Translations under genes and position numbers: made by a program
DNA from: Candidatus Latescibacterota bacterium
Lineage (GTDB): Bacteria > Krumholzibacteriota > Krumholzibacteriia > WVZY01
Assembly: GCA_963791045.1 (NCBI GenBank)
Contig: CAWBQK010000017.1
Location: 1-64,000, forward strand
Direction: 5' to 3'
Length of the DNA stretch: 64,000 nucleotides
In this document: positions 9,596 to 59,388 of the stretch, one piece after another
Position numbering within the stretch: position 1 is the stretch's first letter
Layout of the letters: each line of letters begins with the position of its first letter
Notes under the pieces: generated by a model
The model's input: only the letters and a program-made list of their open reading frames with translations
Databases searched by the model: none
Told to the model about the DNA's origin: nothing

Positions 9596-9604
9596 GGCGT
9601 TAAC

Positions 9605-42356: not shown

Positions 42357-43631
42357 ATGGCGGTAACGCTGGTTGTCGGCGGCCAATGGGGCGACGAGGG
42401 CAAGGCTAAGATCATCGACTTCCTCGCAGAGGATGCCGATTTCGTCGCGAGATATCAGGGCGGCGCAAACGCCGGCCACACCGTCGTCGTCGGCGATGAC
42501 CGTTTTGCGTTTCACCTGGTGCCGTCCGGGATTCTGTATCCGCACGCGAGTTGTATTCTCGGCGGCGGGATGGTCATCGACCCTTCCGCGTTGACTCGTG
42601 AGATAGACGGGATCGTGGAAAAGGGAATCGATGTCGGGGGGCGCATTTTTATCAGCGAACAAGCCCACATCGTCCTTCCTTATCATATCGCTATGGATTG
42701 CGGCTCCGAAGAGAGTTTGGGCGATTCGTCGATCGGCACGACAAGAAAAGGGATCACCCCGGCATATGTGGACAAGATCGGACGGCGCGGAATCCGGATG
42801 GGTGACTTGCTGCGGCCGCGCGCGGATCTCGAACGTCTCCTCGAGACGAGAATCAGGGAAAACAACAAACAACTGCGGGCTCAAGGCCACAAAACAATTC
42901 CTGTTAAAAAAACCATAAAAACATTGTTTGAAATCAAGAAGAAGATCGGGCCGATGATCACCGACACGAGACTCATTCTGTGGGCGGCGCTCGAGAAGAA
43001 GAAAAACATTTTGTGCGAAGGCGCCCAGGGCACGCTTCTCGACATCGACCATGGGACTTACCCATTCGTCACATCGAGCTCGGCGTCGGCCGGGGGCGCT
43101 GTATCAGGAACGGGGTTGCCGCCGTCAGCCTTCACTCGCGTGATTGGAATTTTCAAAGCGTACTGCACTCGTGTGGGGAACGGGCCGTTTCCGAGCGAGG
43201 ATGAAGGGAAAGCGGGCAACACGCTGCGTGACATCGGAAATGAATACGGTACTACCACGGGCCGGCCGCGGCGCTGCGGTTGGTTCGACGCCGTCGCCGC
43301 AAGGACCGTCGTCAAATTGAACGGCCTCACGGAGATCGCGTTGACGAAGCTCGACGTTCTCGATGATTTCGATGAAATAAAGGTGTGCACGCAGTACAGG
43401 ATGGGGAAAGAACGACTGGATTATTTTCCGGTCAACACGAGGACACTCGAGAATTGCAGGCCCGAGTACGATGTGATCGATGGCTGGAACAAAAAATCGT
43501 TCACGAGTGGATCGGACAGGCTACCGGGCAAGGCGGCGTCCTACGTAAGATATCTGGAAAAACTCGTAGGATGCAAGATTCGCCTCGTCTCCCTCGGCCC
43601 CGAAAGAAGCGCGATGATCGATCGTGGTTGA
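42357..43631 (+). CDS. purA: Adenylosuccinate synthase
   Basis: QWGDEGKAK, GGANAGHT, EGAQG, TRVGNGPFP, TTGRPRRCGW, LTKLD. Confidence 0.97.
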   Translation: MAVTLVVGGQWGDEGKAKIIDFLAEDADFVARYQGGANAGHTVVVGDDRFAFHLVPSGILYPHASCILGGGMVIDPSALTREIDGIVEKGIDVGGRIFISEQAHIVLPYHIAMDCGSEESLGDSSIGTTRKGITPAYVDKIGRRGIRMGDLLRPRADLERLLETRIRENNKQLRAQGHKTIPVKKTIKTLFEIKKKIGPMITDTRLILWAALEKKKNILCEGAQGTLLDIDHGTYPFVTSSSASAGGAVSGTGLPPSAFTRVIGIFKAYCTRVGNGPFPSEDEGKAGNTLRDIGNEYGTTTGRPRRCGWFDAVAARTVVKLNGLTEIALTKLDVLDDFDEIKVCTQYRMGKERLDYFPVNTRTLENCRPEYDVIDGWNKKSFTSGSDRLPGKAASYVRYLEKLVGCKIRLVSLGPERSAMIDRG

Positions 43632-43735: not shown

Positions 43736-43811
43736 GAGTCGCTAGCTCATCTGGTAGAGCACATGCCTTTTAAGCATGGGGTACTGGGTTCGAGTCCCAG
43801 GCGACTCACCA
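43736..43811 (+). tRNA. tRNA-Lys (anticodon TTT)
   Basis: Acceptor GAGTCGC/GCGACTC + ACCA; anticodon arm CATGC-CTTTTAA-GCATG; GGTTCGAGT; 76 nt. Confidence 0.96.
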
Positions 43812-43838
43812 TTTTTTTTGCCCTCCGGGAGGGGTGAA

Positions 43839-44768
43839 ATGGAGTTCGCGCGGTTTGTGGAGGATCACGCCGTGGTTCTCACCGAGGGATCGATAATCGA
43901 GAGGGTGAGGCGTTCGTTCGATGTTGCGCTCGACCCGCACATCGAAAATACCGGGTTGGTTTTTGATGACCGAGGCCGGGATATCCTGACGACTATTTAC
44001 CGCGAGTACCTTGACGTTGGTCGGGATACCGGTATGCCGATGATCATGTTGACGCCGACGTGGCGCGCGAATCCCGAGCGGCTCGCCAGGGCCGGTATTG
44101 TCGACGTGAAAGTGGTTCACGGCGAGTGCTTTGATTTGGTGTCATCGATACGGACTGGATACGGGGGATACGCGTCGAGCGTTCCGATCGGCGGGCTCAT
44201 GGGTTGTCGCGGAGACGCGTATCGTCCTGAAGAGGCGTTGGGAATAGATGAGGCGGAACTATTCCACTCGTCGCAGGTTGAGGCTCTTTCGGAGGCGGGG
44301 GTTGATTTCTTGTTGGCATCGACATTGCCGGCAAGAACCGAAGCCGTTGGAATCGCAAAGGCATTGGCGCGGAGCGGTCTCCCTTACATTCCCAGTTTTA
44401 TAGTGCGGCCGGACGCAACTCTTCTCGATGGATCGCCTCTGTGTGATGTGATCGAAGAGATAGACAGCACGGTCGATCCGTCGCCGGTTTTTTACATGAT
44501 GAATTGTATCCATCCCGCCGTGTACATACGCGCGCATTCGGCGCTGGAATCCGAACATGCGAAGCGGCGTGTGCTGGGCCTCCAGGCGAACGCGTCGCCC
44601 AAAACCCCGGAGGAGCTGGACAATCTGGACAGGCTGGACGCCGCGGACCCCGACGATTTCGGGGGGGCGATGATCGATGCCCACCAGGAGTGCGGCGCGA
44701 AAATACTCGGAGGGTGTTGTGGGACGGACTCACGGCACATCCGGAGTATCGCCCGGAAGCTCGCTTGA
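43839..44768 (+). CDS. Homocysteine S-methyltransferase family protein (stand-alone)
   Basis: TPTWRAN, GCRGDAY, MNCIHP, GGCCGTD Zn ligands. The track start at 43776 lies inside tRNA-Lys. Confidence 0.85.
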   Translation: MEFARFVEDHAVVLTEGSIIERVRRSFDVALDPHIENTGLVFDDRGRDILTTIYREYLDVGRDTGMPMIMLTPTWRANPERLARAGIVDVKVVHGECFDLVSSIRTGYGGYASSVPIGGLMGCRGDAYRPEEALGIDEAELFHSSQVEALSEAGVDFLLASTLPARTEAVGIAKALARSGLPYIPSFIVRPDATLLDGSPLCDVIEEIDSTVDPSPVFYMMNCIHPAVYIRAHSALESEHAKRRVLGLQANASPKTPEELDNLDRLDAADPDDFGGAMIDAHQECGAKILGGCCGTDSRHIRSIARKLA

Positions 44769-44914
44769 TCTCCTCGGACACACTACTCGGACCACGGTTC
44801 GTCTTCCATCCCACCCGTTTTCCGGTAAATATTGACACCGCCCCATCAGTGTGGTTGCCTCGTTCATAGAGACTTGTGATTGACAATACGATCAAGGAGC
44901 AAGGGAGGCTCGAG

Positions 44915-46561
44915 ATGTTCCTGATAACAAAAAAACTTCTGAGCGCAGTGGCTGTCGTCATCGCGTTCGCTTGTGTGGCGGGTGTGGCTTGGGCTCAACC
45001 GGGCACTGCGGTCGAGACGTTCGATACGCCAAGCAAGTACCCCGGCGGAATCGCCTTTGACGGAACATATTTCTATGTCGCCGACTGGCGGGAGGCGGCC
45101 ATCTATCGGGTGGATCCTTCCGATGGCGCCGTGGTTGACAAGAAGATAGCGCCGACACTCAAGCCCAAAGGGATGACGTTCGGAGACGGGCACCTCTTTG
45201 TGTCGGACGATCGTACCGGCGCCGTATTTGCCTGGAATTTCGATACGGGGATGGTGGATTGGACCTTCGCCGCCCCGGGCAAACAAGCTGCCGGTCTGGC
45301 GTGGGCCGGAGACGCGTTGTACATCCTCGAGAAGCGGAGCCGCAAGGTGTACAGGGTGTTGCCCGAGGACGGAACCATCCTCGCGAATTTTCCCGTTCCC
45401 AGCAAGTACTGCGAGAACCTCGCGTTTGATGGAAAGTATCTTTGGATTTCCAACCGCATTGACGACGAAATCTACATGGTCGATCCGGACACGGGGACGG
45501 TGATCGGCGTGATCGACGCGCCGGGGCCGTATGCTTCAGGTGTCGAATGGGTGGATGGATTTCTGTGGAATGTTGATTTCCAGAACCGATCGGTCTACAA
45601 GCTCGTGATCGACGCGGACAAACCGTACAGGTTGACCGATACTCGCATCGCCAGAGTGGAGTACTACTGGGGGCTGAATAACTATGGCCCGGGGGAAGTC
45701 AAAGACGTCGTTTTGAATATCGCCGTGCCCGAGACGCTTCCCAACCAGGAGCTACTGTCGGATATGACGTATTCAGCGGCGCCGGCTAAGCTGGACAAAG
45801 ACAAGTGGGACCAGCCGTGCGCGGTTTTCAACCTTGGTGGTGTCCGGGCGGGGAGCAAGGCGGAACTCTCGTACTCCGTCCAGGCGAAGGTATCGGCGAT
45901 CCGCTATTTGATCATTCCTGAAAAGACAGGCAAGCTCAGCGACATCCCGCGGGACGTGCGGGACAAGTACCTGGCCGACGGGTCGAGATACCGCATCTCA
46001 TCGCCTTATATCAAAAAGACTGCAAGAGAAATTGTGGGAGACGAAACCAACCCCTATTGGATCGCGCGCAAGATCTACAATTTTGTGATCGACAGACTCT
46101 ATTACGAGATGATCGGTGGGTGGGACGTGCCCGAAGTGGTGTTGAAACGGGGAAGCGGTTCGTGTTCCGAATACACGTTCTCGTTCGTCGCGCTTTGCAG
46201 GGCTGCCGGACTCCCCGCGCGTTACCAGGGCAGTGTCGTGGTTCGCGGTGACGATGCAAGTATAGACGAAGCGTTTCACCGATGGGCGCAAGTTTATCTT
46301 CCCAACTATGGCTGGGTCCCCGTGGACGCCAACAGGGGCGACAAAGAATCTCCGGTAGGCCAGGCGAAGGGGATTGGCGAACTCGCCAACAGATTTCTTA
46401 TTACAACGCACAGCGGGGGAGGATCGGAATATCTTTCCTGGGGATATAATTCGTTTGCCAGTTTCAAGATGAACGGCTACTGCAAGATCGAAGAGGACAA
46501 TCTAGGATTCTGGGAACCCCTGGATGGAGAAGGGGTCGAGTCGGCGTCGGTAAAGCCGTGA
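44915..46561 (+). CDS. Secreted beta-propeller + transglutaminase-like (Cys-His-Asp) protein
   Basis: Signal peptide; repeated G[IML][AT][FW]DG blades; GSCSEY, ALCRAAGLPAR, FHRWAQVY, GWVPVD. Confidence 0.85.
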   Translation: MFLITKKLLSAVAVVIAFACVAGVAWAQPGTAVETFDTPSKYPGGIAFDGTYFYVADWREAAIYRVDPSDGAVVDKKIAPTLKPKGMTFGDGHLFVSDDRTGAVFAWNFDTGMVDWTFAAPGKQAAGLAWAGDALYILEKRSRKVYRVLPEDGTILANFPVPSKYCENLAFDGKYLWISNRIDDEIYMVDPDTGTVIGVIDAPGPYASGVEWVDGFLWNVDFQNRSVYKLVIDADKPYRLTDTRIARVEYYWGLNNYGPGEVKDVVLNIAVPETLPNQELLSDMTYSAAPAKLDKDKWDQPCAVFNLGGVRAGSKAELSYSVQAKVSAIRYLIIPEKTGKLSDIPRDVRDKYLADGSRYRISSPYIKKTAREIVGDETNPYWIARKIYNFVIDRLYYEMIGGWDVPEVVLKRGSGSCSEYTFSFVALCRAAGLPARYQGSVVVRGDDASIDEAFHRWAQVYLPNYGWVPVDANRGDKESPVGQAKGIGELANRFLITTHSGGGSEYLSWGYNSFASFKMNGYCKIEEDNLGFWEPLDGEGVESASVKP

Positions 46562-46576
46562 TTGTTCGATAAATGA

Positions 46577-46622
46577 AAAAGGAAAAGTCCTGTCACACAA
46601 TGGCGACAGGGCTTTTCCTTTT
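46577..46622. terminator. Bidirectional intrinsic terminator between convergent genes
   Basis: AAAAGGAAAAGTCCTGTC ... GACAGGGCTTTTCCTTTT. Confidence 0.8.
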
Positions 46623-46636
46623 GTATCCGCGTGCGG

Positions 46637-48226
46637 TCACTCGATCTCAAAAACACGGGAATGCGAGAAAACGTTTCCGTACTCGTCGGTGGTGCGAACG
46701 GTGATCGTATGTACGCCGGTTTCGAGATCGAGCGGGAGTTCCGCGGTCCAGATGTGTGATGCCGGAATGGGTTGGATCCAATCCGGATACTTTTTGGGGT
46801 TGTTTTTGATAAGACTCTCGATGAACGGATCGTTCATCACGGTTCTCTCCATGCGGACATACTCGGCCCCGCCAAGCCGGTACTCGACGGTCGAATGTTT
46901 ATTGCCGTTGAAGACGTTGGCGACGACGTCGATGTTGCTCTCCGAGGTGAGTTTGACGCGGCCCGCCGGCGCGCTGATTCGGATCTGAAGGTCCTCATCG
47001 AATCCGGCCGCTTTGAATCTCTGTGTGTATTTGGAGCCGTCGAAGCTAAAAATGTGATAGCCGTTTGGTGCGCCGTCACGTTGTTCGGTCGACGGGATGC
47101 CCCTCTCGTTCCGAGGGCCGCTCCACCATGATCCAGAAACGGCTCCGCAGGTAATCTGCTGGAATCTGCGGTCACCCATCCATCCGGCGTTCTCGTCCAG
47201 GTCGTACTGCTCGATCAGGTGCATATGACCGGTCACCGCGAGAAGGTGGCTCCTGTCCTTCAACAAATCAAAGAGATCGTCCCTGTCAATGACGTTGACG
47301 TCCTCCTCGGAGCTTCCCGGTGAGTAAAGTGGGATGTGCATGGTGAACACGATCAGGCGGTCCGAGGACACATGTTCGAGGTAGTTTTCAATCCAGGCGG
47401 TCTGCCGGTTGCCGAGTTTGCCCCTGTAATTTCCTGTTTCCTTTTCTTCGTCCTCTCCCATCCACTCGACGTTATCAAGAACGATGAAAGAAACCTTGCC
47501 GTATTCGAAAGCATAGTATGTGGGGCCGAAATGACGCCGGAAGGTCTCCAGGGCAAAGCGATCGTCCTCGGCGTCGAAATTCATGTCGTGGTTGCCGGGA
47601 ACGTTGAAGAAAGGAATCCCCGCGGCCGCTACGATCCCGTTATACCGGTCGTAGAGGGAGAGGTCGTTGTACATGATATCGCCGAGTGTAATGCCGAACG
47701 CGGCTTGGGTTCCCACGAGTTCGGAGACGACATCGTCACGTATATAGTCGATCTCACGATTGGATCGTGGTTGGGGGTCGGAAAAAACCACGACATCAAA
47801 CTTGTTGGTTTTGTTTTTCGCTTTCAGTAGAGGAAAGTCCACGGACTCCGGCAGCGGTCCCGTGGGCAGCAACCCCTCATGTTTGAACTCGGGTGATCCT
47901 TCGGGCCGATGAACGTAGTAAAATCTTGGGATATGATTCTCGTCGAGCGAGAGATCATAGTCGGCGGGTTTGACAACAAAAATGGTGGCGTTCTCACCAT
48001 GGAGGGAGATTTTGTAGTGTCCCTTTCGGTTGGTTTTGACGACGTCAAACTGGTTCGATACGAGAACACCGCCGACACCTTTTTCCCCGTCGTCCCTTTG
48101 GGCGTTGTCATTCGTATCTTCGAAGACGACACCCTCGACAAATTTGAGCTCCTTCGTGTCTTTTCGCCCGCAGCCGAGGATCAGCATGGACGCAGCGATT
48201 ATGATCATGACACCAAGCGATTTCAT
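46637..48226 (-). CDS. Calcineurin-like metallophosphoesterase lipoprotein (MetallophosN/C flanking domains)
   Basis: Lipobox ILGC; SDPQ, LGD, PGNHD, MHIP, GHMH, GAVSGSWWSG. Confidence 0.88.
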   Translation of the reverse strand: MKSLGVMIIIAASMLILGCGRKDTKELKFVEGVVFEDTNDNAQRDDGEKGVGGVLVSNQFDVVKTNRKGHYKISLHGENATIFVVKPADYDLSLDENHIPRFYYVHRPEGSPEFKHEGLLPTGPLPESVDFPLLKAKNKTNKFDVVVFSDPQPRSNREIDYIRDDVVSELVGTQAAFGITLGDIMYNDLSLYDRYNGIVAAAGIPFFNVPGNHDMNFDAEDDRFALETFRRHFGPTYYAFEYGKVSFIVLDNVEWMGEDEEKETGNYRGKLGNRQTAWIENYLEHVSSDRLIVFTMHIPLYSPGSSEEDVNVIDRDDLFDLLKDRSHLLAVTGHMHLIEQYDLDENAGWMGDRRFQQITCGAVSGSWWSGPRNERGIPSTEQRDGAPNGYHIFSFDGSKYTQRFKAAGFDEDLQIRISAPAGRVKLTSESNIDVVANVFNGNKHSTVEYRLGGAEYVRMERTVMNDPFIESLIKNNPKKYPDWIQPIPASHIWTAELPLDLETGVHTITVRTTDEYGNVFSHSRVFEIE

Positions 48227-48588
48227 ACGGAAAAGCCCCCTCGTCAAATACGCACAGCAAGAGAACGCAATGTGTTGCGATTGTTATTTGTGAGCATGAG
48301 AATTACACAACTGCCGGTTGAATGCCGATATTCTAATGGTTTCGGCCCTGTACGTCAAAGCAACGGTTTGCGTGAATGGCGGAATTTCTGGTGTGGGCCA
48401 ATTGCCGCCCTCCAAGAATGGCCTTGAATTCAACTCCGACGGGCGCTACATTCGCTCCTCATGGGGGGGGCAGGCCCCCGGCCGTTGCCTCTTGGCTTTG
48501 AAGTTGCGATTAGGCGATGGGTGTATGATGTTGTCAGTATATGAGTTGCGGTGGTCGATGTGGCGAGTTTGACCTGTTGAGGATTCAG

Positions 48589-50040
48589 ATGTCAGACGAC
48601 AAAATTGGGAAAAAGCCGGGCATTGTTATGATCGTGGTCGACACGCTCAGGGCCGATTTCTTGGGCTGTTACGGCTACCACGAGCCCATAACCGAGAACA
48701 TCGACCGCCTGGCCGCCGGGGGAGCGCGTTTTACCAGGGCGTGGTCTGCCTCTAATTTCACCGCGCCGGCATTCGCTTCTCTCTTTACGTCGCTATATCC
48801 GACGCACCACGGCGTCTACGACTTCAACATCAAGAAACTCCCCGAGAGCCCGCTGATGCGGATCGTAAAAAATGCCGGTTACATGCGCAAAGCCGTCGTT
48901 GATTTTGGCTTTTTCAAAAGCTATCTCGGCGAGTCTTTCGATCATATGGAATCACTGACCGACCTTGGGCCGAACTGGTCGACTGAAGGGCCGGTCCTCG
49001 AGACCGAGCGGGCAGTGGATTGGCTCAAAGAAAACAGCCGCGCACCATTCTTTCTTTTTCTTCACTTGTCTCCGCCGCATACACCGTACCGGTTTCCGGA
49101 TGAGTTCTACACGATTCTACGGGCGAGTCAAAGTTGTTCGGATGGGATGGAGAGGCTTCGCGCTCATGAGATACTCGGCTCGCTTCTCCCAACGCCGGAG
49201 GATGGTAAGATCTCAGACGATCAGATCGACAGGTTCAACCGCTGCTCGCCGCTTTTGGGCGACGTGGATGTCGGCGAGGATCTTGTAGCTATCATTAAGA
49301 ATCTCTACCGTATGGAAGTAAAGGTGGTCGACGAAATGATCGGGCGCGTGATGAGGACGCTCGAAGATATCGGAATTCTGGACGATACGATCGTGAGCGT
49401 ATCGTCGGATCACGGGGAGGAGTTCTGGGAGCACGGTGGTTTCAGTCACGGGGCATCGGCCATGCACAACGAGGTGATCCGGACTCCGTGGGTGGTGAGT
49501 TGTCCGTCGGTGATTTGCTCAACGGCTGAAATCAACTCGAACGTATCTCACACGAATATCCTTCCGACCCTGATGGATCTTGCGGGGATCGATCTGCCCG
49601 TTTCTGCAAGAAGAAAGAGTGTGCGGGGTTTGATCGAAACACAGGGAGACGGCGGCGAGGAAGCGCGGTCAAAGGGAAGAACTGTTTACTGTGAGACGGC
49701 GACACGGATCAGCGTCATGGATGGGGAGATGAAATTGATCGCGCCAAATGAACGCGCTCGATATCGCGGCACGAAAGAGAAGTTGAAATATCGGATGTCT
49801 CTGGCCAAGAAACGTTTGAAGGGTTCGGGTGGGGAGCAGGTCGAACTGTACGATCTCGGGGATGATCCCGGCGAACGAAAGAATATTGCGGATTCGAACC
49901 CGGATGTGGTCAAACGGCTGAAGGGCTTGATCGATGAATATCATGCGAGTGATGACACGACACTGGGGGCGGGGGAGGACCTGACGCCGGAAGAAGAAGA
50001 GCGTATTAAGAAGGAACTCGAAGGTCTCGGTTATTACTAG
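48589..50040 (+). CDS. Sulfatase-like / alkaline-phosphatase-superfamily protein
   Basis: VDTLRAD, FTAPAFASLFTSLYP, PHTPY, SDHGEEFWEHG, ELYDLGDDPGE, LEGLGY. Confidence 0.85.
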   Translation: MSDDKIGKKPGIVMIVVDTLRADFLGCYGYHEPITENIDRLAAGGARFTRAWSASNFTAPAFASLFTSLYPTHHGVYDFNIKKLPESPLMRIVKNAGYMRKAVVDFGFFKSYLGESFDHMESLTDLGPNWSTEGPVLETERAVDWLKENSRAPFFLFLHLSPPHTPYRFPDEFYTILRASQSCSDGMERLRAHEILGSLLPTPEDGKISDDQIDRFNRCSPLLGDVDVGEDLVAIIKNLYRMEVKVVDEMIGRVMRTLEDIGILDDTIVSVSSDHGEEFWEHGGFSHGASAMHNEVIRTPWVVSCPSVICSTAEINSNVSHTNILPTLMDLAGIDLPVSARRKSVRGLIETQGDGGEEARSKGRTVYCETATRISVMDGEMKLIAPNERARYRGTKEKLKYRMSLAKKRLKGSGGEQVELYDLGDDPGERKNIADSNPDVVKRLKGLIDEYHASDDTTLGAGEDLTPEEEERIKKELEGLGYY

Positions 50041-50047
50041 GCCGTGG

Positions 50048-51517
50048 TTAATACAGGCGCCATGCTGGGAGTGATTCCACTCCGTGACGCGCAGCGTCTT
50101 CCGTCATGATGACCAACAGTTTGTCGATCAACTCTTCGGACGCTTTTGAGAGCGAGGGGTTTTCGAGAAGTTTCTGTGCCGTGTCATGCGCCCGTGCTGC
50201 CGCAGTCTTGCCACCCGCCATCTCCCAATCACCATATGTGCCGCGATCCACGACATCCGACGGATAATACACTTCGTCTCTGAAATGACTCCGTGTGTGC
50301 TCGGAGGTCATAAACGTTTTTGCTCCCGATGTCACAAACTCGCGGAGAACATCGATTCCAGCGGTCGCGTCTTTAAAGGTGATGCCTTCCTTGAGCCGGC
50401 GGGCCATCATGCACACTTCCGCGTCGAGAACGAGTTTCTCCAGGCTCTGACAGGCGACAAAGTCAAGGATGCCGGGCCCCGATACAATATTGACGCCGGC
50501 AATTGCGGCAAGCACGGCGCCTATCCCCGTTTCGAAGCCGGCCTGGTAGTCGGGGCTCTTGGCGTCGCTGAGAGCCATGTAGGCGTGTACGGGAAGTCTC
50601 AGCGATTTGCCGATTTGGGCGTAGCCGATATCAACCATCATGGTCTCAATCGCGCCCAGCGGTGTCGTGGCCTTGCGCATGTCAAAAATCGCGGGAGCTC
50701 CGCCGTACACAATCGGCGCGCCGGGATTGGTGAGTTGATGGATGACGAGACCGCTCAAGCTCTCCGCCGTGTGCTGAACGAGTGACCCTGTGAGTGTGAC
50801 CGGGGCGGTGGCGCCGGACAGCGGCATCGATACCGTCTCCGCCGGAACTCCGTGGGCGGCACAATCCATAAGTGCCTGGCATGTAAGATCGCTCCATGAC
50901 AACGGTGGAGAGGGGCAACAATCGAAGATGGCGAGCGGTTTGTCTCGGAGCGCGTCGGCGCTCCCGCGGGCGGCGACGAGCATGTCGAACATTACGGGAA
51001 ACGCTTCCTTCAAAAATGTGCCGGTGATGACCGGCTTCTTGCTGTAGACAAGAGCGAGAAAAAGTCTGTACCTGTCGGCAAGTTTATCGGGCAGGTCGGA
51101 AGGGACAACGCCCGTGCTCTGAACATCGAAAGCCGGCGTCTGGTCGGTGACCGCGATGAATTCGACAACGTCTTTGGTTGTTGGTTTAACTGCTTTGTTG
51201 TTTTGAAAGTCAAAAACGGATATTGCCGCGGAGCCGGGGTCAAAGATCAGGTTGTTCCGCCCGACACATCCGACCTCGTCGCCATCGCGATCGTAGAGGA
51301 AAAAATGATCGGGAGCGGTACGAAGACTCTGGTCGACGAGGTTTTCACTTATGAGAACGCGAGTCCCGTCGTCGCTCGCCTTTGCGCCGCCCGCGCTTAA
51401 CCGTTCGACCGCTTCTTTATTCTCGACAATGACGCCGACTTCGGAGAGAACAGAAATCGCCTCGCCGACGATTTGCTCGATCTGTGCGGGGGACAGAAGC
51501 AGCGGATTTGACGACAT
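50048..51517 (-). CDS. MttB-superfamily (trimethylamine/quaternary amine) methyltransferase, non-pyrrolysine
   Basis: SPPL, GATAPVTLTG, PGAPIVYG, SDAKSPDYQAGFE, SLEKLVLDAE; no in-frame amber codon. Confidence 0.9.
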   Translation of the reverse strand: MSSNPLLLSPAQIEQIVGEAISVLSEVGVIVENKEAVERLSAGGAKASDDGTRVLISENLVDQSLRTAPDHFFLYDRDGDEVGCVGRNNLIFDPGSAAISVFDFQNNKAVKPTTKDVVEFIAVTDQTPAFDVQSTGVVPSDLPDKLADRYRLFLALVYSKKPVITGTFLKEAFPVMFDMLVAARGSADALRDKPLAIFDCCPSPPLSWSDLTCQALMDCAAHGVPAETVSMPLSGATAPVTLTGSLVQHTAESLSGLVIHQLTNPGAPIVYGGAPAIFDMRKATTPLGAIETMMVDIGYAQIGKSLRLPVHAYMALSDAKSPDYQAGFETGIGAVLAAIAGVNIVSGPGILDFVACQSLEKLVLDAEVCMMARRLKEGITFKDATAGIDVLREFVTSGAKTFMTSEHTRSHFRDEVYYPSDVVDRGTYGDWEMAGGKTAAARAHDTAQKLLENPSLSKASEELIDKLLVIMTEDAARHGVESLPAWRLY

Positions 51518-51533
51518 GAACGTGATCCCCGGT

Positions 51534-52178
51534 TTAAGTTTTATCTTCGTGCTTGAATCGGCAGTTCACCATTCCGCAGTACTCGCACACGTCGGTATTG
51601 CGCATGTCGATGGGGTGATCACCAATGGCGACGGCGAACGTTATCGATTTTCTGGGGACCATCATCGCGCCTTCGGTCAGGTGAACGCCCAGCGAGTCGC
51701 CCTCGACCGCCGCGTAGAGCCATTTTTGCTCGGCGACATTCCAGCCCCCGTAGCCAGGACTGAACCGGCGGCTGCATTTAAGGCCCGACTTCGAGATCTT
51801 GTCACATATGATTTTGTTCGCCTGGTCGGCGGCCGCTTCGGTTGCCGCGGAACCGTAACTATCGAGGATGAGCGCACGGCTCAGGTCGCCGGCAAACTTG
51901 AACTCGTTGACGACTTCTTCGAGCTTGGGACCAATGGTGACGAGGCAAACAACGAGTGCGCTGATATGACAGACAAAATGCGAGTGGAAATACTCGTCGC
52001 TCGTCATCGTGCGAAACGCGCACACGGGCGCCAGAAGAGTCGGAGCAATCTTTTCAATTTCATCTATTGCCGTCATCACCCTGGGTGGAATTTGGGTTTC
52101 GCCATACCCCAGGCAACGCGCGATCTCGTCGCGGGCTACTGTGATTTGAAATCCGTCGACTCTTTCGATCTTGCTCAT
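51534..52178 (-). CDS. B12-dependent methionine synthase activation-domain protein
   Basis: LVTIG..LE, LDSYGS, RFSPGYG, MMVPRKSIT, C-terminal CEYC...C. Confidence 0.85.
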   Translation of the reverse strand: MSKIERVDGFQITVARDEIARCLGYGETQIPPRVMTAIDEIEKIAPTLLAPVCAFRTMTSDEYFHSHFVCHISALVVCLVTIGPKLEEVVNEFKFAGDLSRALILDSYGSAATEAAADQANKIICDKISKSGLKCSRRFSPGYGGWNVAEQKWLYAAVEGDSLGVHLTEGAMMVPRKSITFAVAIGDHPIDMRNTDVCEYCGMVNCRFKHEDKT

Positions 52179-52211
52179 TGCTATACCTCTGTTATTGGTT
52201 GGTATCTGATT

Positions 52212-53159
52212 TCAAACTGACACCCGGTCTGACACTTCTTGAATAAATGCCGGTGTCGTCCCGCAACACCCGCCCACCGCGTTGATTCCGATCTCAAACA
52301 TTTGTTCGACATCGTCGGCGAATTCCGCCGGGGTCTGGTCGTACGCCGGCATACCGTCGCGAACGGTGGGCTGCCCGGCGTTGGGCTGACACAGAAGAGG
52401 GAGGTTCGTACCATCGCGCAGAACGCGTGCGAGTTGCGTCATGTCGGAACTCGTGAGCGTGCAGTTTGCGCCGACGACATCCGCTCCGGCGTTCTCGAGA
52501 ACTCTGAGAGATTCGCACACTTCGTTTCCCATGACCGTATAGAAACCGCGAGGGTTCTTGTTGTATGTCAGCGTCACAACTGTGACGGCGGCAAGAGATT
52601 TCCTTGCGACCTCGAGGGCGATCAGCGCTTCTCTAATATCGAACATTGTCTCGATGAGAACAATATCAACCGCCGCGTCCAACCCCTCGATCATTCCGGA
52701 AAACTCTTTTTCGAGCTCAGGCTCGGTGGCATTTCCGACCGGTGGCAGCATTTTACCGGTTGGGCCGATCGAGAGGGCGACGAATCGCTCGCGTGCTCCG
52801 GGTCGGGTCCTGCCGCCGGGGGAACCGCACGGAGCGCAGGTATCGTGGATCGAGTTGAATCGTGACACGGCGTCGCGCGCGAGACGGACCCCGGCTGTAT
52901 TGATGGCGCCGGCATCGCGGCCGAGTTTGAAGCCCTCGAGCCGTGACGGCGTCGAACCAAAGGTGTTGGTTCCGACAACATCCGCACCGGCCTCGAGGTA
53001 TGCGGCGTGGACATCCCGGATCACCGACGGACGGGTGATGTTCCACTCTTCCGGCGATTTGCCGGGAGCGAGCCCTTCAGCGATCAGCATGGAACCCATC
53101 GCTCCGTCGAAAAGAACGCCGCCGTTTGTGATTCGATCGAGTACGATTTGTTTTCTCAC
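52212..53159 (-). CDS. Homocysteine S-methyltransferase domain protein (MetH N-terminal module)
   Basis: FDGAMGS, HAAYLEAGAD, TNTFG, SIGPTG, IETM, GANC, QPNAG, GGCCGTTP. Confidence 0.9.
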   Translation of the reverse strand: MRKQIVLDRITNGGVLFDGAMGSMLIAEGLAPGKSPEEWNITRPSVIRDVHAAYLEAGADVVGTNTFGSTPSRLEGFKLGRDAGAINTAGVRLARDAVSRFNSIHDTCAPCGSPGGRTRPGARERFVALSIGPTGKMLPPVGNATEPELEKEFSGMIEGLDAAVDIVLIETMFDIREALIALEVARKSLAAVTVVTLTYNKNPRGFYTVMGNEVCESLRVLENAGADVVGANCTLTSSDMTQLARVLRDGTNLPLLCQPNAGQPTVRDGMPAYDQTPAEFADDVEQMFEIGINAVGGCCGTTPAFIQEVSDRVSV

Positions 53160-53171
53160 ATTATTCCGATT

Positions 53172-53813
53172 TCAGGAAAGCAGCGAACGGGCTTTCTTGA
53201 CCGCCTCGACCGCGTTTTCCGCATACGCGTCCGCTCCGATTTCGTTTGCCCACGAGGCGCTTGCCGGCGCGCCACCGACGAGTATCTTGACTTTGTTTCT
53301 AAGCCCTTCGTCGGCCAGTTTGTCGATGACTGTTTTCTGGCCGGCCATCGTGGTGGTCAGGAGCGCCGACATGCACACAAGGGACGATGGATGCGGGCGC
53401 GCCTCTTCGACGAAACGGTCATAGGCGACGTCGGCGCCAAGGTCGATTACACGATAACCATTGGCGGCGAACATCGTCGCGACGAGCGTTTTGCCAATAT
53501 CATGAATGTCACCCTGCACGGTGCCGATAATCACGAGTCCCCTGGAATCAATTTTGGCCTCGTCGTCGAGAAGGGCGGGTTGGAGGACGTCCATCGCCGC
53601 CTTCATTGATTCAGCGCTGAAGGCGAGTTCGGGAAGGAAATACTCGCCCTCTTCCCACAGTTCACCGGCGCGGCGTATCCCCGGAGAAAAGCCGTTCTCG
53701 ATGATATCGAGCACGTCGTATCGATTATCCAGGGTGTCGGCCGCCAGCTGAACGGCACGCTCACGGTCGCCTTTGAGCACGGCGTCTTCGCACTGTTTCA
53801 GAAACTCCATCAT
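53172..53813 (-). CDS. Corrinoid (cobalamin-binding) protein
   Basis: Cap domain GEYFLPEL; GDIHDIGK; SALLTTTM; VGGAP. Confidence 0.92.
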   Translation of the reverse strand: MMEFLKQCEDAVLKGDRERAVQLAADTLDNRYDVLDIIENGFSPGIRRAGELWEEGEYFLPELAFSAESMKAAMDVLQPALLDDEAKIDSRGLVIIGTVQGDIHDIGKTLVATMFAANGYRVIDLGADVAYDRFVEEARPHPSSLVCMSALLTTTMAGQKTVIDKLADEGLRNKVKILVGGAPASASWANEIGADAYAENAVEAVKKARSLLS

Positions 53814-54206: not shown

Positions 54207-54950
54207 ATGCGCCGTTTGTTACTTGGTTTTCTTTTTGTAGGTGTCGTATCGATGCTTGCGTTCGCGCCGGCTCTTGCAGAGAGGGTCGTGGATCCGCAGC
54301 CTATCGATCGGGCTACGGTGACGGAAATTAACTTAGGGCCCGCCGGATATTCAGAGGCCTGCCAGGTTGGAAACTTGAATTCGCCCGCTTTCGCGTTAGG
54401 GGACTTCGCCGCCGCGCCTGAGGAATACAAGTTGGTTTTCGATCCGAAGGCAACGTGTTCAGTGTGTCCAATTGGTTTTCTTGTGAACACCGTGCATTTT
54501 CTCGTCCAGACATCCGAAGCGATGGATATGGTGTGCGCGGTGAACGTGGAAGAGGCCATTTTCCCGACGAGCCCGGATTGTCCCGAACCGGGCCAGGTTC
54601 TTTGCCAGTCGGGGTTCTTCACTGTGAACCTCCCAGGCGCGGGTCTGTGGGACATAGCGCTCCCGATCGCCTGCGAGTGCTACACGATGGAGAGAATCTA
54701 TCTCTTGAGCGTTCATTTTGACTCGTTCACGAGTGCGACCGGAGCCGTTCCCGATCTGATTACGGATGCGGGTCCGGCAACGCTTTGTACGAACTGGAAC
54801 AACTATGGTGCGGGTTGGTACGATCTCGTTTCGGCCTTCCCGACCTGGCCGGGTCAGCTGATATTTTTTGCCGATGCCGAATGCTGTACACCACCAGTAC
54901 CGGTTGAGGGCAAAACGTGGGGCGCCATAAAGGACCTCTACGATAATTAA
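54207..54950 (+). CDS. Secreted Cys-rich hypothetical protein ending in PVPVEGKTWGAIKDLY
   Basis: AGGAGG RBS; signal peptide ending ALA; about 11 Cys; TWGxIK tail. Confidence 0.8.
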   Translation: MRRLLLGFLFVGVVSMLAFAPALAERVVDPQPIDRATVTEINLGPAGYSEACQVGNLNSPAFALGDFAAAPEEYKLVFDPKATCSVCPIGFLVNTVHFLVQTSEAMDMVCAVNVEEAIFPTSPDCPEPGQVLCQSGFFTVNLPGAGLWDIALPIACECYTMERIYLLSVHFDSFTSATGAVPDLITDAGPATLCTNWNNYGAGWYDLVSAFPTWPGQLIFFADAECCTPPVPVEGKTWGAIKDLYDN

Positions 54951-55022
54951 CGGATCACCTCGCAGCATTCCTGTGTGGCGAGGCGTGAATATTTGCGCCG
55001 GACCGACACGGGAAAAGTGAGT

Positions 55023-55058
55023 AAACGGGACCTTCGATTTTCGAAGGTCCCGTTTTTT
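55023..55058 (+). terminator. Intrinsic terminator
   Basis: AAACGGGACCTTCGA-TTT-TCGAAGGTCCCGTTT followed by TTT. Confidence 0.85.
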
Positions 55059-55198
55059 GTGGTGTGATGGGAGTGATGTCCGGACCACCGATTTCCGGAA
55101 TGCGGGGCCGAGCAGGCCATCGCTTCTGTTCGACGATTCGTCCGATATATGTTATATTTTCCCAGGTACAAGATCGACCCCGCAGCGGAAATCTATTT

Positions 55199-57958
55199 AT
55201 GGCGCCATTGAACAACCCTATATCCGACATCCCCAAATACACACACCTCAAGGTCCACTCGTCATTCAGTCTCGGTGTGGGTCTGAACACGCCCGCTGAG
55301 ATCTGCGCACACGCTCATAGAATGGGTTATGAGAGCGTTGCAATTACCGACAATGATGGCACTTATGGGTTTGTTGAGATGCACCTTGCGGCGAAGAAAT
55401 ACGGGATAAAGCCGATCTACGGAGTCGTCGTCCGTCACCATCCCGTGGCGAACAGCGGTGAAGACCAGTTCGCTTTGACGTTGATTGCGCTTTCTCCCCT
55501 CGGGCTAAAGCACATCGCCGCGCTGGCCAGTTTTTCCGCCGCGGGCCTGGAGGGTGGGGGCGCGCTCGATCTCGACGTGATGGCGCCCCACACGGATGAT
55601 GTCGTCGCTTTTGCCGGGGGGGCGGACAGTGAGATCGGACGGATGCTTTTGGAGGGGGACGAGGAGAGTGCCGGACGTGTGGCCGGCGCGTTCAAGGAAC
55701 TCTTTGCCGACCGCTTCTTTATTGAAATCCACGATCACGGCATAAGCGACGAACGAGCGCTGGCCGACAAGCTTCTCTCGATTTCCGCCGCCACGCAATC
55801 GGCGCCGCTGCTTACGCAGGAAGTCCGGTACATGGAAAAGGGAATGCGCGAAATGTACGGGACGCTTCGTGGAATCCGGCAGCCGGACGGCGAGAGGGAT
55901 TTCTTCAAGATCGACAGACGGCTTGCGGATTGGAGCATGAAGTCCGCGTTGGAGGTCAGTCAGCTTCATCCGTTTTATGAAGCGGCATACGAGAACACGC
56001 GTCTTGTTGATGAAATGATCCCCGGTGACCTTCTGGCCGGCGCGACCGAAGCGGGGAAGGCCGGGGCGCTACTCGATTCCGGAGAGGTTACGCGTGATGA
56101 TGTTCGTGATTTGTGCACCAAAGTAATCCGAAGACAGTATGAGAACTTGTCCAACACCGAGATTCTTCGTTATCAGGGCCTCCTGGACGGTGAGCTCGAC
56201 CGGGCGTTTTCAGCAGGGATCGGACCCACGCTGTATCTGTATCACCGCATCGTGGGAAGCTTGAGAGAAGCCAACGTCGAGCTTGGCCCCGCGACGGGCC
56301 TCGGTATACAGTCGTTGTGCGCGTATCTCCTCGGAATCACGCTATTCGACCCCTACCGTTACGACCAGGGCTTCGAACCGATACTCGACGCGGAGTCGAG
56401 AGAGTTCGGGGAATTCGAACTCCAGCTGACCGGCGAAACCCGCGACACCGCAATAAACACTCTTTTCGAACTCTTCGATTTTGGCTCTGTGGCCTACCTT
56501 CCCGCGATTGAGCGCGTGACACCCGCACGTGCGGTTCGGATGGTATCGAGTGTTGTCGAAGCGCCCGAGGGAGAACTTCAAGAAATCCTTCGGATCATCG
56601 GTCGTCATCCGGGCGTTTCACTAAAGAAACTCAATGAGCAGGACTGGCAGCTGGGACGGTTGTACAAACGCTCGCTGCCGGTGAGGGATCTTCTGTCGAG
56701 GGCGGCGCTTCTCGAGAACCTGCCGATTGGTTTTATCCGGTCGAGGCGGAGTATGGCTCTGTCCGCGCTGCCGCTCACCGATTTTCTCGGGCATTCGATT
56801 GACTCGGATACCGGGGACTTGTTTATCCAGGCGGGACGGGATTGCTTTCCATTCGAGAGTGTGTTCCGTCTGGACGTTTCAACGCTCAGCGCGCTTAGCG
56901 TCGCGACGGGTGCCGACGTCGAACTGCGCAAGGCGCGGATTGCCGACTACGGGTGGGATGGTTTTTCCATCAATGACGACGACGTGTGGCGCATGGTGCA
57001 GCGAGGAGATACCACCGGGGTGTTTCTTTTTGAAGGACCCGCGACGCTTCAGCAAAGGGAAAATTTCCCGCTGGGGTCGATGGCCGATCTCACGAGTTTT
57101 CTTGCGTTGATGCGGATCCGCGAGGACGACCAGTCATTGAGCGAGCGTTTCGCGGCGTTTCTCGAGGAGCCCAGTGAGCAGAGCGAAGACGACGCTCTGT
57201 TGGGACATGTTCTTCGGAGCACGCGCGGTCACGTTCTCTTCCACGAACAGATACGTGAAATCATCGAAACGCTCACTTGCGAGAGCGGACCCGACGCATG
57301 GAGAATGATGGATGAAATGCGTTCCTCGTCGCCCGCCGATTTGTCGTCGGCGAGGAAGCATTTCATGATGGGGACGGCGGAAAAGAATGTGCCCCTGGAC
57401 ACGGCGAACAAATGGTTCGAGCGGCTTTTGCATTTCGTCAACTTCACCATCAGCAGAAAACGCGTGTTCGCGGACGCGCTTCTCGTTTACAAACTGTTCT
57501 TCCAAAAAACAAAACACGAGATCGAATTCTTTGCGGCGCTTCTCAATGCAAATCTTGCCAATGAAAGCAAGCGACGTCGCTACATGGGACCCCTGCGCGA
57601 ACGGGATCTGATTCGGGAACTTGACGTGAACATAAGCGAGCCTGAATACGCCGTTGAAGACGGGCGGATTCGTGTCGGGCTGCGATCGGTAACGGGTGTG
57701 GACCGGGACATGGCCGTGAGGATTGTCAGAGCGCGCGGTCGGGGGGCGTTTCAATCTCTCGAAGATTTTATAAAGAAAGTCGGAGCGAAGCACATCGGCA
57801 GGGATGAGGTTCGCCGGATTGTCGACGCCGGCGGGTTTGATTCAGCCGGCGTGGATCGCGCGCATCTCCTCAAGGTTTTGCCGAGGCTGTATGAAAGCAG
57901 GAAACCGGTTGTTGAGGCGAGGAAGAAGGGACAGATGGAGCTTCCTTTCGACGCTTAG
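55199..57958 (+). CDS. DnaE (Pol III alpha)-like protein with PHP, palm, fingers and HhH regions, degenerate active site and C-terminal clamp-binding-like motif
   Basis: HLKVHSSFSL, AITD, GIKPIYG, SLCAYLLGITLFDP, GDTTGVF, EFFAALLN, DVN.S, IRVGLRSVTGV, GGFDS are collinear with DnaE. The PDxDxDF motif reads GEFELQL; the protein ends QMELPFDA. Confidence 0.88.
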   Translation: MAPLNNPISDIPKYTHLKVHSSFSLGVGLNTPAEICAHAHRMGYESVAITDNDGTYGFVEMHLAAKKYGIKPIYGVVVRHHPVANSGEDQFALTLIALSPLGLKHIAALASFSAAGLEGGGALDLDVMAPHTDDVVAFAGGADSEIGRMLLEGDEESAGRVAGAFKELFADRFFIEIHDHGISDERALADKLLSISAATQSAPLLTQEVRYMEKGMREMYGTLRGIRQPDGERDFFKIDRRLADWSMKSALEVSQLHPFYEAAYENTRLVDEMIPGDLLAGATEAGKAGALLDSGEVTRDDVRDLCTKVIRRQYENLSNTEILRYQGLLDGELDRAFSAGIGPTLYLYHRIVGSLREANVELGPATGLGIQSLCAYLLGITLFDPYRYDQGFEPILDAESREFGEFELQLTGETRDTAINTLFELFDFGSVAYLPAIERVTPARAVRMVSSVVEAPEGELQEILRIIGRHPGVSLKKLNEQDWQLGRLYKRSLPVRDLLSRAALLENLPIGFIRSRRSMALSALPLTDFLGHSIDSDTGDLFIQAGRDCFPFESVFRLDVSTLSALSVATGADVELRKARIADYGWDGFSINDDDVWRMVQRGDTTGVFLFEGPATLQQRENFPLGSMADLTSFLALMRIREDDQSLSERFAAFLEEPSEQSEDDALLGHVLRSTRGHVLFHEQIREIIETLTCESGPDAWRMMDEMRSSSPADLSSARKHFMMGTAEKNVPLDTANKWFERLLHFVNFTISRKRVFADALLVYKLFFQKTKHEIEFFAALLNANLANESKRRRYMGPLRERDLIRELDVNISEPEYAVEDGRIRVGLRSVTGVDRDMAVRIVRARGRGAFQSLEDFIKKVGAKHIGRDEVRRIVDAGGFDSAGVDRAHLLKVLPRLYESRKPVVEARKKGQMELPFDA

Positions 57959-58114
57959 AGCCTGTCGCCGGGATGTTGACCGGGAGGGGTGTTTTTTGGG
58001 AATCGGCGGGGTTAAAGTCTGACTCCTTGCTGACGCGGAAAATATTTGACTTTTCCGATCTAAGGTGTTATTTGTATGTAACTTCACAAAAATAGCTTAC
58101 TTAGATCTCTGAGC

Positions 58115-58192
58115 GTCCCCATCGTCTAGCCTGGCCTAGGACACCGCCCTTTCACGGCGGCGACAGGGGTTCAAATCCCCTTGGGGACGCCA
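58115..58192 (+). tRNA. tRNA-Glu (anticodon TTC)
   Basis: Acceptor GTCCCCA/TGGGGAC + GCCA; anticodon arm CCGCC-CTTTCAC-GGCGG; GGTTCAAAT. Confidence 0.96.
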
Positions 58193-58306: not shown

Positions 58307-59388
58307 ATGTCGATTCTCTACTCACAAACCAGTCTCGGCCCTCTGACGCTACAAAACCATCTGGTCATGGCGACCGATGACGCGCAGCCGCGCAACCGAC
58401 AATATTCCCAACGAGCTCATGATGGAGTACTACGCGCAACGCGGCTCGGCGGGACTGATTATTGCCGAGGGTACGTCGCCCTCACCGAATGGGTTGGGTT
58501 ACCCGCGCATACCGGGAATATTCTCCCCGCCCCAGGTCGAAGGCTGGAAACGTATTACCGATGCAGTGCACGCCAAGGGCGCGAAGATGTTCATCCAGCT
58601 CATGCATTGCGGACGGATTGCTCATCCACTGAACTTGCCCGCGGGGAATCGTGTGCTGGCGCCTTCGGCCGTGGTGGCCTCGGGCGAGATGTTCACAGAT
58701 GAGGAGGGCTATGAAGCCTCATCCGGTGCCGCAGGCGATGACCGCGGAGGACATTACGGCCACGATCGCGGAGTATGCTCAGGCCGCCAAGAATGCCGTG
58801 ACAGCGGGGTTTGACGGCGTCGAGTTGCACAGCGCCAACGGCTATCTGCTGGAACAGTTCATCCGCCCGAATACGAATCAGCGCACTGATGGATATGGCG
58901 GTCCGATCGAGAACCGCGCACGTTTCGTGCTGGAAGTGGTTGAGGCGGTAATTGGTGCTATTGGCAAGGACAAGGTGGGCATCCGGCTTTCGCCATTCGG
59001 CGTGTTCAACGATATGCCGTCGTACGACGCGATGGAGACGGATTATACCTACCTGGCGCAACAACTCGACGCCAGCGGGCTGGTGTATATCCACCTGGTG
59101 GATCACTCGTCAATGGGAGCGCCGCCGGTGCCCGATGCCATAAAGGAAATGTTCCGCACGGAATTCAAGCGCACGTTGATTCTCTCCGGCGGTTACGATG
59201 CCGAGCGCGCTGAAAGCGATCTGGCCACTGGCAAATGCGATCTAATCGCCGTGGGGCGGCCGTTTCTTGCTAATCCCGACCTGGTGGATCGATGGAAAAC
59301 CGGTGCGGCTGTGAACGAGCCGGATATGGATACGTTCTACACGCCGGGACCGAAGGGCTATACCGACTACCCGGCGTTGAAGAAATAG
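58307..59388 (+). CDS. Old Yellow Enzyme-family alkene reductase (NemA-like); two frameshifts
   Basis: AGGAGG RBS; LVMA|PMTRSRA (extra base near 58372); YYAQR; QLMHCGR; second shift near 58711; GFDGVELHSANGYL, ENRARF, GRPFLANPDL, KGYTDYP. Confidence 0.88.

Follow-up and report, generated by a model that had tools for sequence, protein, structure and literature searches.

The window analysed here is a stretch of 64,000 nucleotides from a Candidatus Latescibacterota bacterium (contig CAWBQK010000017.1 of assembly GCA_963791045.1), and its gene at 55199-57958 encodes a homologue of DnaE, the alpha subunit of DNA polymerase III (Pol III). The product (P0001) is very probably a DnaE paralogue that is dead both as a polymerase and at its PHP site and that has been kept by selection. 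When all parts of the argument are blended, it is also probable, with less assurance, that P0001 is a vertically inherited alpha paralogue, unable to polymerise or proofread, that is selected as a non-catalytic binder of DNA and of the beta clamp. Below, G000 denotes the genome of the window, and f1 and f2 the two families of its order.

The gene is a single open frame of 919 codons and a stop on the plus strand. A first-pass annotation, made from the letters of the window alone, had described an uninterrupted frame of about 920 residues that is collinear with DnaE, aligns with its palm without gaps, carries a list of active-site substitutions and stops at the position of the clamp motif. Pfam searches, phmmer alignment and translation of the two key sites (56411-56425 and 57932-57949) bore out this description in full. 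The features of the coding region are as follows.

55199-57958, plus strand: coding sequence of the putative polymerase-dead and PHP-dead DnaE paralogue (919 residues, P0001)
55244-55738, plus strand: PHP domain (Pfam PF02811, residues 16-180, 91 bits)
56105-56725, plus strand: palm/thumb region, a weak match to Pfam DNA_pol3_alpha (residues 303-509, 59.3 bits)
56285-56302, plus strand: GPATGL, replacing the GPGRGS nucleotide-binding motif and opening the most conserved block of the family (residues 364-378)
56411-56425, plus strand: EFELQ in place of the catalytic D-x-D-x-D, from translation and alignment
56867-56875, plus strand: RLD, with the third Asp retained (E. coli D555) and the family-invariant Arg at E. 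coli K553
56954-57388, plus strand: fingers domain, RRAMGKK not kept (Pfam PF17657, residues 586-730, 53 bits)
57611-57868, plus strand: tandem helix-hairpin-helix (HhH) domain of the double-stranded DNA- and beta-binding type (Pfam PF14579, HHH_6, residues 805-890, 69.8 bits)
57932-57949, plus strand: QMELPF, a beta-clamp-binding-type motif in the disordered C-terminal tail

The PHP, palm/thumb, fingers and HhH domains stand in DnaE order, and all four Pfam matches are above their cut-offs. Against the solved E. coli Pol III alpha (5m1s_A), phmmer returned an E value of 6.6e-60 with a gapless palm, in which each residue of P0001 corresponds to the E. coli residue plus four. On this alignment D401, D403 and D405 are replaced by E405, E407 and Q409, and of the catalytic Asp triad only D555 survives, as D559. 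R362, G363 and S364 read Thr, Gly and Leu, turning GRGS into ATGL, while R390 is replaced by P394 and R396 by S400; in the fingers, RRAMGKK reads MDEMRSS and YGFNKSH reads FTISRKR. The PHP metal ligands, HHDHEHCDH in the canonical enzyme, read K H V N V A G E R, with one of the nine kept. The Asp triad (E. coli D401, D403 and D555) and D405 are described as absolutely conserved in C-family polymerases in the available part of PMC3919608. By sequence, P0001 lacks what marks an active enzyme of the DnaE type, namely the complete Asp triad with D405, GRGS, R390/R396 and the finger motifs.

The curated protein models are in line with this divergence. P0001 scored 59.3 and 62.7 bits on DNA_pol3_alpha, compared with 335 bits for the genome's own DnaE1; it reached 352.5 bits on the NCBIfam DnaE1 equivalog NF004226 (cut-off 1002), 341.5 bits on TIGR00594 (cut-off 434.35) and 180 bits on the DnaE2 model NF004225 (cut-off 939). 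The protein terminates at residue 919 (...GQMELPFDA), where DnaE has its internal clamp motif, and no OB or tau-binding part follows. A split-off OB gene, which the first-pass annotation had not seen in the window, was also not found genome-wide in G000 (eight C-terminal queries, best E value 0.036).

P0001 belongs to a well-delimited family. A word-indexed search of 5.8 billion proteins gave 89 matches at E ≤ 0.001 among 7998 candidates scored, and 51 of these (P0002-P0052) are relatives at 32-78% identity and at least 406 bits; the next matches were canonical DnaE proteins at no more than 219 bits and 24% identity. A profile built from 38 members (A1) was also run on 1.84 billion representatives clustered at 50% identity. 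It matched about 13 clusters of full length and about 8 of fragments at scores of 504-1367 bits (weakest full-length cluster, 878), and canonical DnaE proteins followed at 498 bits or less. GRGS and D-x-D are missing from every family representative spanning the site, and the first 19 canonical matches retain both. No annotation in the source records of the members goes beyond "PHP domain-containing protein" or "DNA polymerase-3 subunit alpha", and some members are named as proteins of "Candidatus Latescibacterota", "Latescibacteria" or "Krumholzibacteria" metagenome-assembled genomes (MAGs).

We compared the active-site columns of 52 family proteins with those of 18 canonical DnaEs. The canonical residues were invariant across all 18, bar one non-Arg at R396. 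In the family, the D401 column reads Glu in 31 proteins, Asp in 2 and Ile, Val or Leu in 19, and the D403 column reads Glu in 41 and Asp in 11; none of the 52 has Asp at both columns and none has GRGS, so the substitutions listed in the first-pass annotation are matched by loss of both motifs in every orthologue. The D405 column is Gln in 52/52, R362 is replaced by Thr (49) or Ser (3), the S364 column is never Ser, and R390 is replaced by Pro (49) or Ala (3). Conversely, the K553 column is Arg and the D555 column Asp in 51 of 51 proteins. The replacements in the finger motifs and of the triphosphate arginines are likewise family-wide, and only 0-2 of the nine PHP ligands are kept across the family, as against 9/9 in the genome's own DnaE1. 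Two sub-clades can be told apart: the OB-less one, which includes the window gene, reads E-h-E-h-Q at the former D-x-D-x-D, and its sister, the only one with an OB domain (PF01336), reads (I/V/L)-h-(E/D)-h-Q.

The rewritten segments, judged by their conservation, are not drifting. The top-conserved block of 15 residues in the family is 364-378 (PATGLGIQSLCAYLL, score 0.87), the former GRGS helix, and among the domains mean pairwise identity peaks (0.53) in the palm segment 511-565, which contains the family motif GFIRSRRS and R557-x-D559. Purifying selection on the family is indicated by Nei-Gojobori ratios of non-synonymous to synonymous change (dN/dS) of 0.125-0.232 in all seven orthologue pairs compared (at least 62% identity; three pairs with dS below 0.75), in agreement with the earlier suggestion of selection rather than decay. 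Frames of about 900-1100 residues remain intact across sequences at 32-78% identity, and certain residues are invariant specifically within the family. Compared with DnaE1 of the respective genomes, the family has a dN higher by a factor of 1.6-2.7, as measured over six usable genome pairs after exclusion of two rows involving G012, for which the wrong frame had been picked.

The family is confined, as far as its sequences indicate, to one uncultured order, in which a C-family homologue has very probably turned into a pseudo-enzyme. Family-level matches occur in 11 of 12 other f1 genomes and 20 of 23 other f2 genomes (31/35 in total), and the four genomes without a match are 75-85% complete. 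Seven other families of the phylum (165 genomes) gave no family-level match; canonical-level matches appeared there in nine genomes (23-27% identity, 205-233 bits). A maximum-likelihood tree, obtained by quick search under LG+C20 from 1047 columns of 44 rows, places the family outside the sampled DnaE1 and DnaE2 groups as one clade with 100% support in the Shimodaira-Hasegawa-like approximate likelihood ratio test (SH-aLRT). Its stem is long (1.3 + 0.59 changes per column) and lies between these two groups; as the tree has no PolC outgroup, it does not decide between an origin from DnaE1 and one from DnaE2.

The genome has a canonical replicase of its own, as the first-pass annotation had proposed to verify. 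On contig C7 of G000 lies an intact DnaE1 with GPGRGS, PDIDID, RKAMGKK, YGFNKSH, an OB domain, a C-terminal tail and the clamp motif QIALF; DinB is encoded on contig C11, and C2 carries DnaE2-like pieces that fall into three or more frames. In five further genomes checked, DnaE1 and the dead-DnaE family occur together in all five and DnaE2 also in four, G027 having the family and no DnaE2 match. The DnaE2 fragments of the order read QGRGS and PPDIDLDI.

Several other genes of these assemblies are broken. The dnaN of G000, on the minus strand of C2 (L068:734-1860), is split into two frames of 191 and 159 residues, its dnaE2-like gene is split as described above, and in the window an old yellow enzyme (OYE)-type flavin oxidoreductase is divided between the overlapping frames 58377-58814 and 58651-59388; stops are also present in the dnaN of G079. 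These splits look like indel errors of long-read MAG assemblies and not like real pseudogenes. The intact 919-codon frame of P0001 therefore stands out in an assembly with frame-shifted dnaN and dnaE2.

To this conserved sequence corresponds, in prediction, a conserved fold. The AlphaFold2 model computed with the family alignment has a predicted local distance difference test (pLDDT) value of 87.6 and a predicted template modelling (pTM) score of 0.84, with disorder at residues 1-8 and 902-919 (pLDDT of the tail below 50). The top Foldseek matches are Pol III alpha subunits, E. coli 2hnh with a template modelling (TM) score of 0.80 over about 920 columns and M. tuberculosis 7pu7 with an E value of 1e-50. 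In the model P0001 thus retains the whole Pol III alpha fold, with PHP, palm, thumb, fingers and HhH.

The C-terminal tail is predicted to dock in the cleft of the beta clamp. Motifs that bind this clamp follow consensus forms of the QL[SD]LF or QLxLxL type, and of the 50 family rows in which this column is filled, 49 retain the Gln of the motif. As the dnaN of G000 is split, the beta clamp was taken from a relative, G126, and two copies of it were modelled with residues 850-919 of P0001. The complex scored 0.68, a mark attained by 58 of 80 solved complexes and by 2 of 110 mismatched pairs, and the best control scored 0.01; contact agreement between runs was at least 88% and the pLDDT of the partner at least 62. 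Contacts with the clamp are made by residues 910-917 (KGQMELPF) alone and fall on clamp residues 170-175, 240-245, 273-276, 318, 342-344 and 361-366, which we take to be the cleft between clamp domains II and III. Both predictions that had been suggested at the outset, of the protein alone and with DnaN, thus came out in favour of a kept fold and a clamp-binding tail.

The history of the locus can be read from three anchors around the gene.

42357-43631, plus strand: purA (adenylosuccinate synthetase), the upstream synteny anchor (Pfam PF00709, 553.6 bits)
43736-43811, plus strand: tRNA-Lys(ttt), synteny anchor (ARAGORN)
58115-58192, plus strand: tRNA-Glu(ttc), the downstream anchor, 157 nucleotides past the stop (ARAGORN)

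OB-bearing relatives have purA, tRNA-Lys(ttt), the gene, lexA and tRNA-Glu(ttc) in this order, and in them the clamp motif is separated from tRNA-Glu by the OB-coding 3' end and lexA. purA is also found 5' of orthologues at loci L038 and L040-L044, and tRNA-Lys lies directly 5' of the gene in most relatives; in the window about 11.4 kilobases (kb) of metabolic genes intervene. A LexA paralogue (PF01726 and PF00717) follows directly 3' on the same strand at 19 of the 29 loci with a 3' flank, which correspond to 19 of 21 OB-bearing loci (all but G029 and G088). Its conserved N-terminus begins at least 43 nucleotides before the stop of the polymerase-like gene at all 18 OB-bearing loci measured, and from this overlap it follows that the two genes are co-transcribed and probably translationally coupled.

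The window lacks the OB-coding end and lexA and keeps purA, tRNA-Lys and tRNA-Glu, and tRNA-Glu comes directly after the gene in the OB-less genomes G079, G120, G116, G112 and G181 too. G029 is intermediate, with the OB domain present and lexA gone. The ancestral locus accordingly reads, by synteny, as purA, tRNA-Lys, a gene with an OB domain, an overlapping lexA paralogue and tRNA-Glu. Since the anchors are kept and the OB end and lexA are missing, the window gene is taken as the orthologue of the lexA-operon gene in a lineage that has deleted both, and the loss of the OB domain is specific to this sub-lineage. The overlap with lexA in the ancestral gene points to the DNA-damage response. These points, together with the erased PHP site, go beyond the first-pass annotation, whose statement that no imuA or imuB neighbours are visible was upheld, the flanking genes being metabolic genes and tRNAs.

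Immediately upstream of the gene lie two further elements.

55023-55055, no strand assigned: bidirectional intrinsic-terminator-like hairpin closing the upstream unit (15-pair stem, then a T run)
55130-55158, plus strand: promoter-like site with an extended -10 element, TG-n-TATATT (consensus scan; TCGACG-17-TATATT preceded by TG)

The frame upstream of ATG 55199 is open as far as GTG 55064. Because the hairpin and the promoter-like site both separate these candidate starts, and homologues begin in alignment with ATG 55199, we took this ATG as the start. The element TG(T/G)nTATATT recurs 5' of OB-less orthologues when read by eye, and the window gene now appears, by sequence, to be driven by its own predicted extended -10 promoter. 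The neighbours directly beside the window gene are conserved among relatives only in G126. They were rejected as conserved partners: an open reading frame (ORF) of 247 residues at 54207-54950 on the plus strand, just 5' of the hairpin, had no Pfam match and no counterpart in 10 related loci and may be spurious or lineage-specific, and the remaining neighbours are metabolic genes.

The LexA linked to the dead polymerase is itself atypical. Cys replaces the nucleophile Ser (G-D/E/G-C-M/L) at 12 of the 13 f2 loci inspected (L019, L021, L022, L024, L026, L027, L029-L032, L034 and L035); Ser is kept in L033 and in three f1 loci. The Ala-Gly cleavage site reads GG in L019, VG in L021 and IG in L022, and the catalytic Lys is replaced by Arg in L019 and L022. 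Most genomes of the order carry, in addition, a second lexA (lexA2) beside dnaE2 and an ImuB-like gene, the latter with weak PF00817 matches of 23-44 bits.

Our best reading of these sequence and model data is that the protein may function as a brake or hand-off factor with an ancestry in the DNA-damage response. The flexible C-terminal QMELPF peptide would dock in the hydrophobic cleft of the beta sliding clamp, and the scaffold of HhH, thumb and fingers (with OB in the ancestral forms) would sit on primer-template or single-stranded DNA without extending it. With the tail tethered to the clamp and the scaffold on the junction, the protein would occupy clamp-loaded 3' ends, either rivalling Pol III alpha or keeping its place. 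Synthesis could then be slowed or paused, or exchange with DinB or the ImuB-DnaE2 translesion enzymes could follow. Ancestrally it would have been made together with LexA in the damage response, from a locus of the form tRNA-Lys, gene with OB, lexA and tRNA-Glu, and the sub-lineage of the window would have deleted the OB domain and lexA and acquired its own extended -10 promoter. We hold the clamp-tethered placeholder or brake as such only tentatively, at slightly under an even chance. A little more speculative is the full picture of a first polymerase-dead C-family branch (a "dead replicase") that stems from a lexA operon, docks on clamp and primer ends and pauses or hands over the replisome after damage, as the C-family counterpart of ImuB and maybe, ancestrally, as a two-protein module with the Cys-nucleophile LexA.

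Several observations weigh against this picture. With a Cys-nucleophile LexA, classical RecA-triggered induction is not assured. Among the sequencing data sets listed for 54900-58100 none was of RNA, and the four of DNA had shares of at most 0.10. An adjacent lexA is found at none of the seven OB-less loci of the window's own sub-lineage, nor at the truncated copy in G126. Neither lexA nor ImuB-like genes were found in the assembly of G000 (80.9% complete), which is the sole one of 36 genomes without a lexA match. No shared LexA operator was recognised 5' of the gene, nor any operator at 55000-55199, and the lexA2 operator CAGACA-N2-TGTCTG is absent near 55199. The palindrome ATAC-N4-GTAT, which in G022 and G028 lies 5' of the gene with a -35 box on one side and a -10 box on the other, was rejected as a LexA operator: it gave 8, 38 and 14 genome-wide matches against 23, 45 and 15 for the reversed control, and it was not found at the other lexA. 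As to docking, clamp-peptide complexes are well represented among solved structures, so the score shows likeness and not binding, and the clamp used was that of a relative and not G000's own. The gene can also be lost, since the orthologue in G126 (L046, G126:C1:3501400-3521300, minus strand, 9081-10739) covers only residues 1-553 and then runs into unrelated sequence within a 735-residue frame. This is either a real truncation or a misassembly; the B12-methyltransferase genes beside it are syntenic with those of the window. Finally, E405, E407 and D559 could in principle still bind metal.

The last point is the starting place for one of the rival explanations, in which the E-x-E...D triad of the OB-less clade binds metal for some nucleotidyl-transfer or hydrolytic reaction. 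In the window's clade each of the three triad positions does carry an acidic residue; family-wide, the first position is acidic in the 31 proteins with Glu and the 2 with Asp, the second in 52/52 and the third (Asp) in 51/51, and the former active-site region is the most conserved of the family. Nevertheless, a re-modelled enzyme seems very improbable, as the first position is Ile, Val or Leu in 19 of 52, the PHP ligands are gone, and every triphosphate-binding residue compared (R362, S364, R390, R396, RRAMGKK and YGFNKSH) has been replaced. That the gene is a decaying or functionless relic of a dnaE duplication is hardly credible. Its faster evolution relative to DnaE1, the truncation in G126 and the lack of a match in 4 of 35 genomes of the order would suit a relic; the intact long frames at such low identities, the low dN/dS, the family-specific invariant residues and a reading frame that is whole where dnaN and dnaE2 of the same assembly are frame-shifted do not.

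The two other rivals grant the protein a function and place it elsewhere. As an ImuB-like adaptor it would not compete with Pol III but act as a scaffold that brings DnaE2 or DinB, as the active translesion polymerase, to the clamp. Its build follows the logic of ImuB in combining a dead polymerase fold, a clamp motif and a LexA association, and DnaE2 and DinB are present in most genomes of the order. However, ImuB-like genes already stand next to lexA2 and dnaE2, and the adaptor role is thereby filled; moreover, the gene is never beside dnaE2 or dinB in 10 extended loci, and G027 has the family without a DnaE2 match, which together make an adaptor unlikely. Alternatively, the dead polymerase could be a partner or sensor of the linked LexA paralogue, in a layout resembling umuD-umuC, and sense DNA ends or damage so as to control LexA cleavage or DNA binding. 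The overlap conserved at 18/18 loci is typical of translationally coupled partners, and the linked LexA is atypical in its nucleophile. Yet the gene persists without this lexA in the window's lineage and in G029 and therefore has a function independent of it, and we regard a LexA partner as improbable.

P0001 resembles DnaE1 (E. coli 2hnh and 5m1s, and the genome's own copy) in its domain order, in the TM score of its fold, in the third Asp and in a clamp motif at the same position. It differs in the replaced D401/D403/D405, GRGS, R390, R396, RRAMGKK and YGFNKSH, in the PHP ligands lost across the family and in the missing OB domain of the window form; in addition, judging from lengths and C-terminal sequences, no family member has the tau-binding C-terminal domain. 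With DnaE2 the family shares the state of a non-essential second C-family paralogue beside DnaE1, a degenerate PHP domain, a LexA association and, in its OB-bearing members, an architecture that ends at the OB domain. Unlike the family, DnaE2 retains the catalytic triad; the family forms a separate clade with full support, lacks imuA and imuB neighbours and scores far below the cut-off of the DnaE2 model.

Functional analogies are found among other dead polymerases. ImuB is a catalytically dead Y-family polymerase that serves as a clamp adaptor, according to the available parts of PMC10421592 and PMC11791113, and is like the family in its polymerase fold without catalytic residues, its clamp-binding motif and its SOS/LexA association; it differs in having a Y-family and not a C-family fold, and ImuB-like genes are separately present in the same order. 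Bacterial PolX1 proteins with an inactivated polymerase site likewise form a clade conserved after loss of the polymerase catalytic residues, and the accessible text of PMC12926913 relates their retention to an active PHP exonuclease. In the dead-DnaE family the PHP site is erased too, unlike in PolX1, so that no catalytic centre would remain. Eukaryotic Pol epsilon contains an inactive C-terminal polymerase module with a structural role in the replisome. This module is of the B family, eukaryotic and fused to an active module, and the likeness lies in a dead replicative fold that is kept structurally.

The text of PMC12926913 consulted here is based on complete genomes and recognises only four groups in the C-family; the inactive homologues that it treats are solely those of the Y and X families and of exonuclease domains. 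We found no description of a polymerase-dead C-family clade in the literature, although an unremarked listing in the supplements of PMC12926913 or PMC3919608 is possible, and this agrees with the first-pass statement that no described C-family equivalent of ImuB is known. Nor did we find a description of a dnaE-like gene overlapping lexA, including in the part of the Bacteroidetes LexA paper PMC8565304 that was available. A clade with both polymerase and PHP centres erased, yet selected and with a clamp motif, would be an exception among C-family proteins and a natural experiment that separates other functions of the alpha-subunit scaffold from its catalysis. Through its ancestral place in a lexA operon, a protein shaped like a replicase is linked to the damage response in a concrete way that can be tested. 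Should the role of brake or hand-off factor on the clamp prove right, the replicase itself would have given rise to a novel kind of replisome regulator.

Relative to the other genomes of the order, the window carries an insert of about 11.4 kb between tRNA-Lys and the gene, with an annotated region at 43776-53813 that holds the following genes.

43776-44768, plus strand, and 52212-53159, minus strand: homocysteine S-methyltransferase-like genes
44876-46561: transglutaminase-like protein
46637-48247, minus strand: calcineurin-like phosphoesterase
48541-50040: sulfatase
50048-51517, minus strand: MttB-type trimethylamine methyltransferase
53172-53813, minus strand: corrinoid-binding protein

In a genome of another family, the DnaE-type match at L051 (G111:C1:172900-177700) is only 1009 residues long; its branch in the tree is long (1.18) and falls outside the DnaE1 clade to which its relatives belong.

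Comparison of the lexA2 upstream regions (L074-L080) brought out a palindrome of 14 bases, CAGACA-(A/T)(A/T)-TGTCTG, between the -35 and -10 boxes upstream of the lexA of the imuB-dnaE2 cassette in G079, G126, G027, G112 and G181, and the core AGACA-N2-TGTCT is placed likewise in G019 and G114. A perfect copy of CAGACA-N2-TGTCTG occurs in G000 at C2:12873-12886, directly upstream of the dnaE2 fragments. Other perfect promoter palindromes, at L019 and L021, differ from each other and were not used, about 0.7 with arms of six nucleotides being expected per region by chance (an estimate). At L072, L073 and L081, which lie 5' of a lexA in G022, G028 and G029, the promoter is of a different design: the direct repeat ACTTTCG-N4-ACTTTCG occupies the space from the -35 to the -10 box, and an inverted CCCGAAAGT is present some 80-120 nucleotides upstream. 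This arrangement may serve a further type of LexA within the order as its operator.

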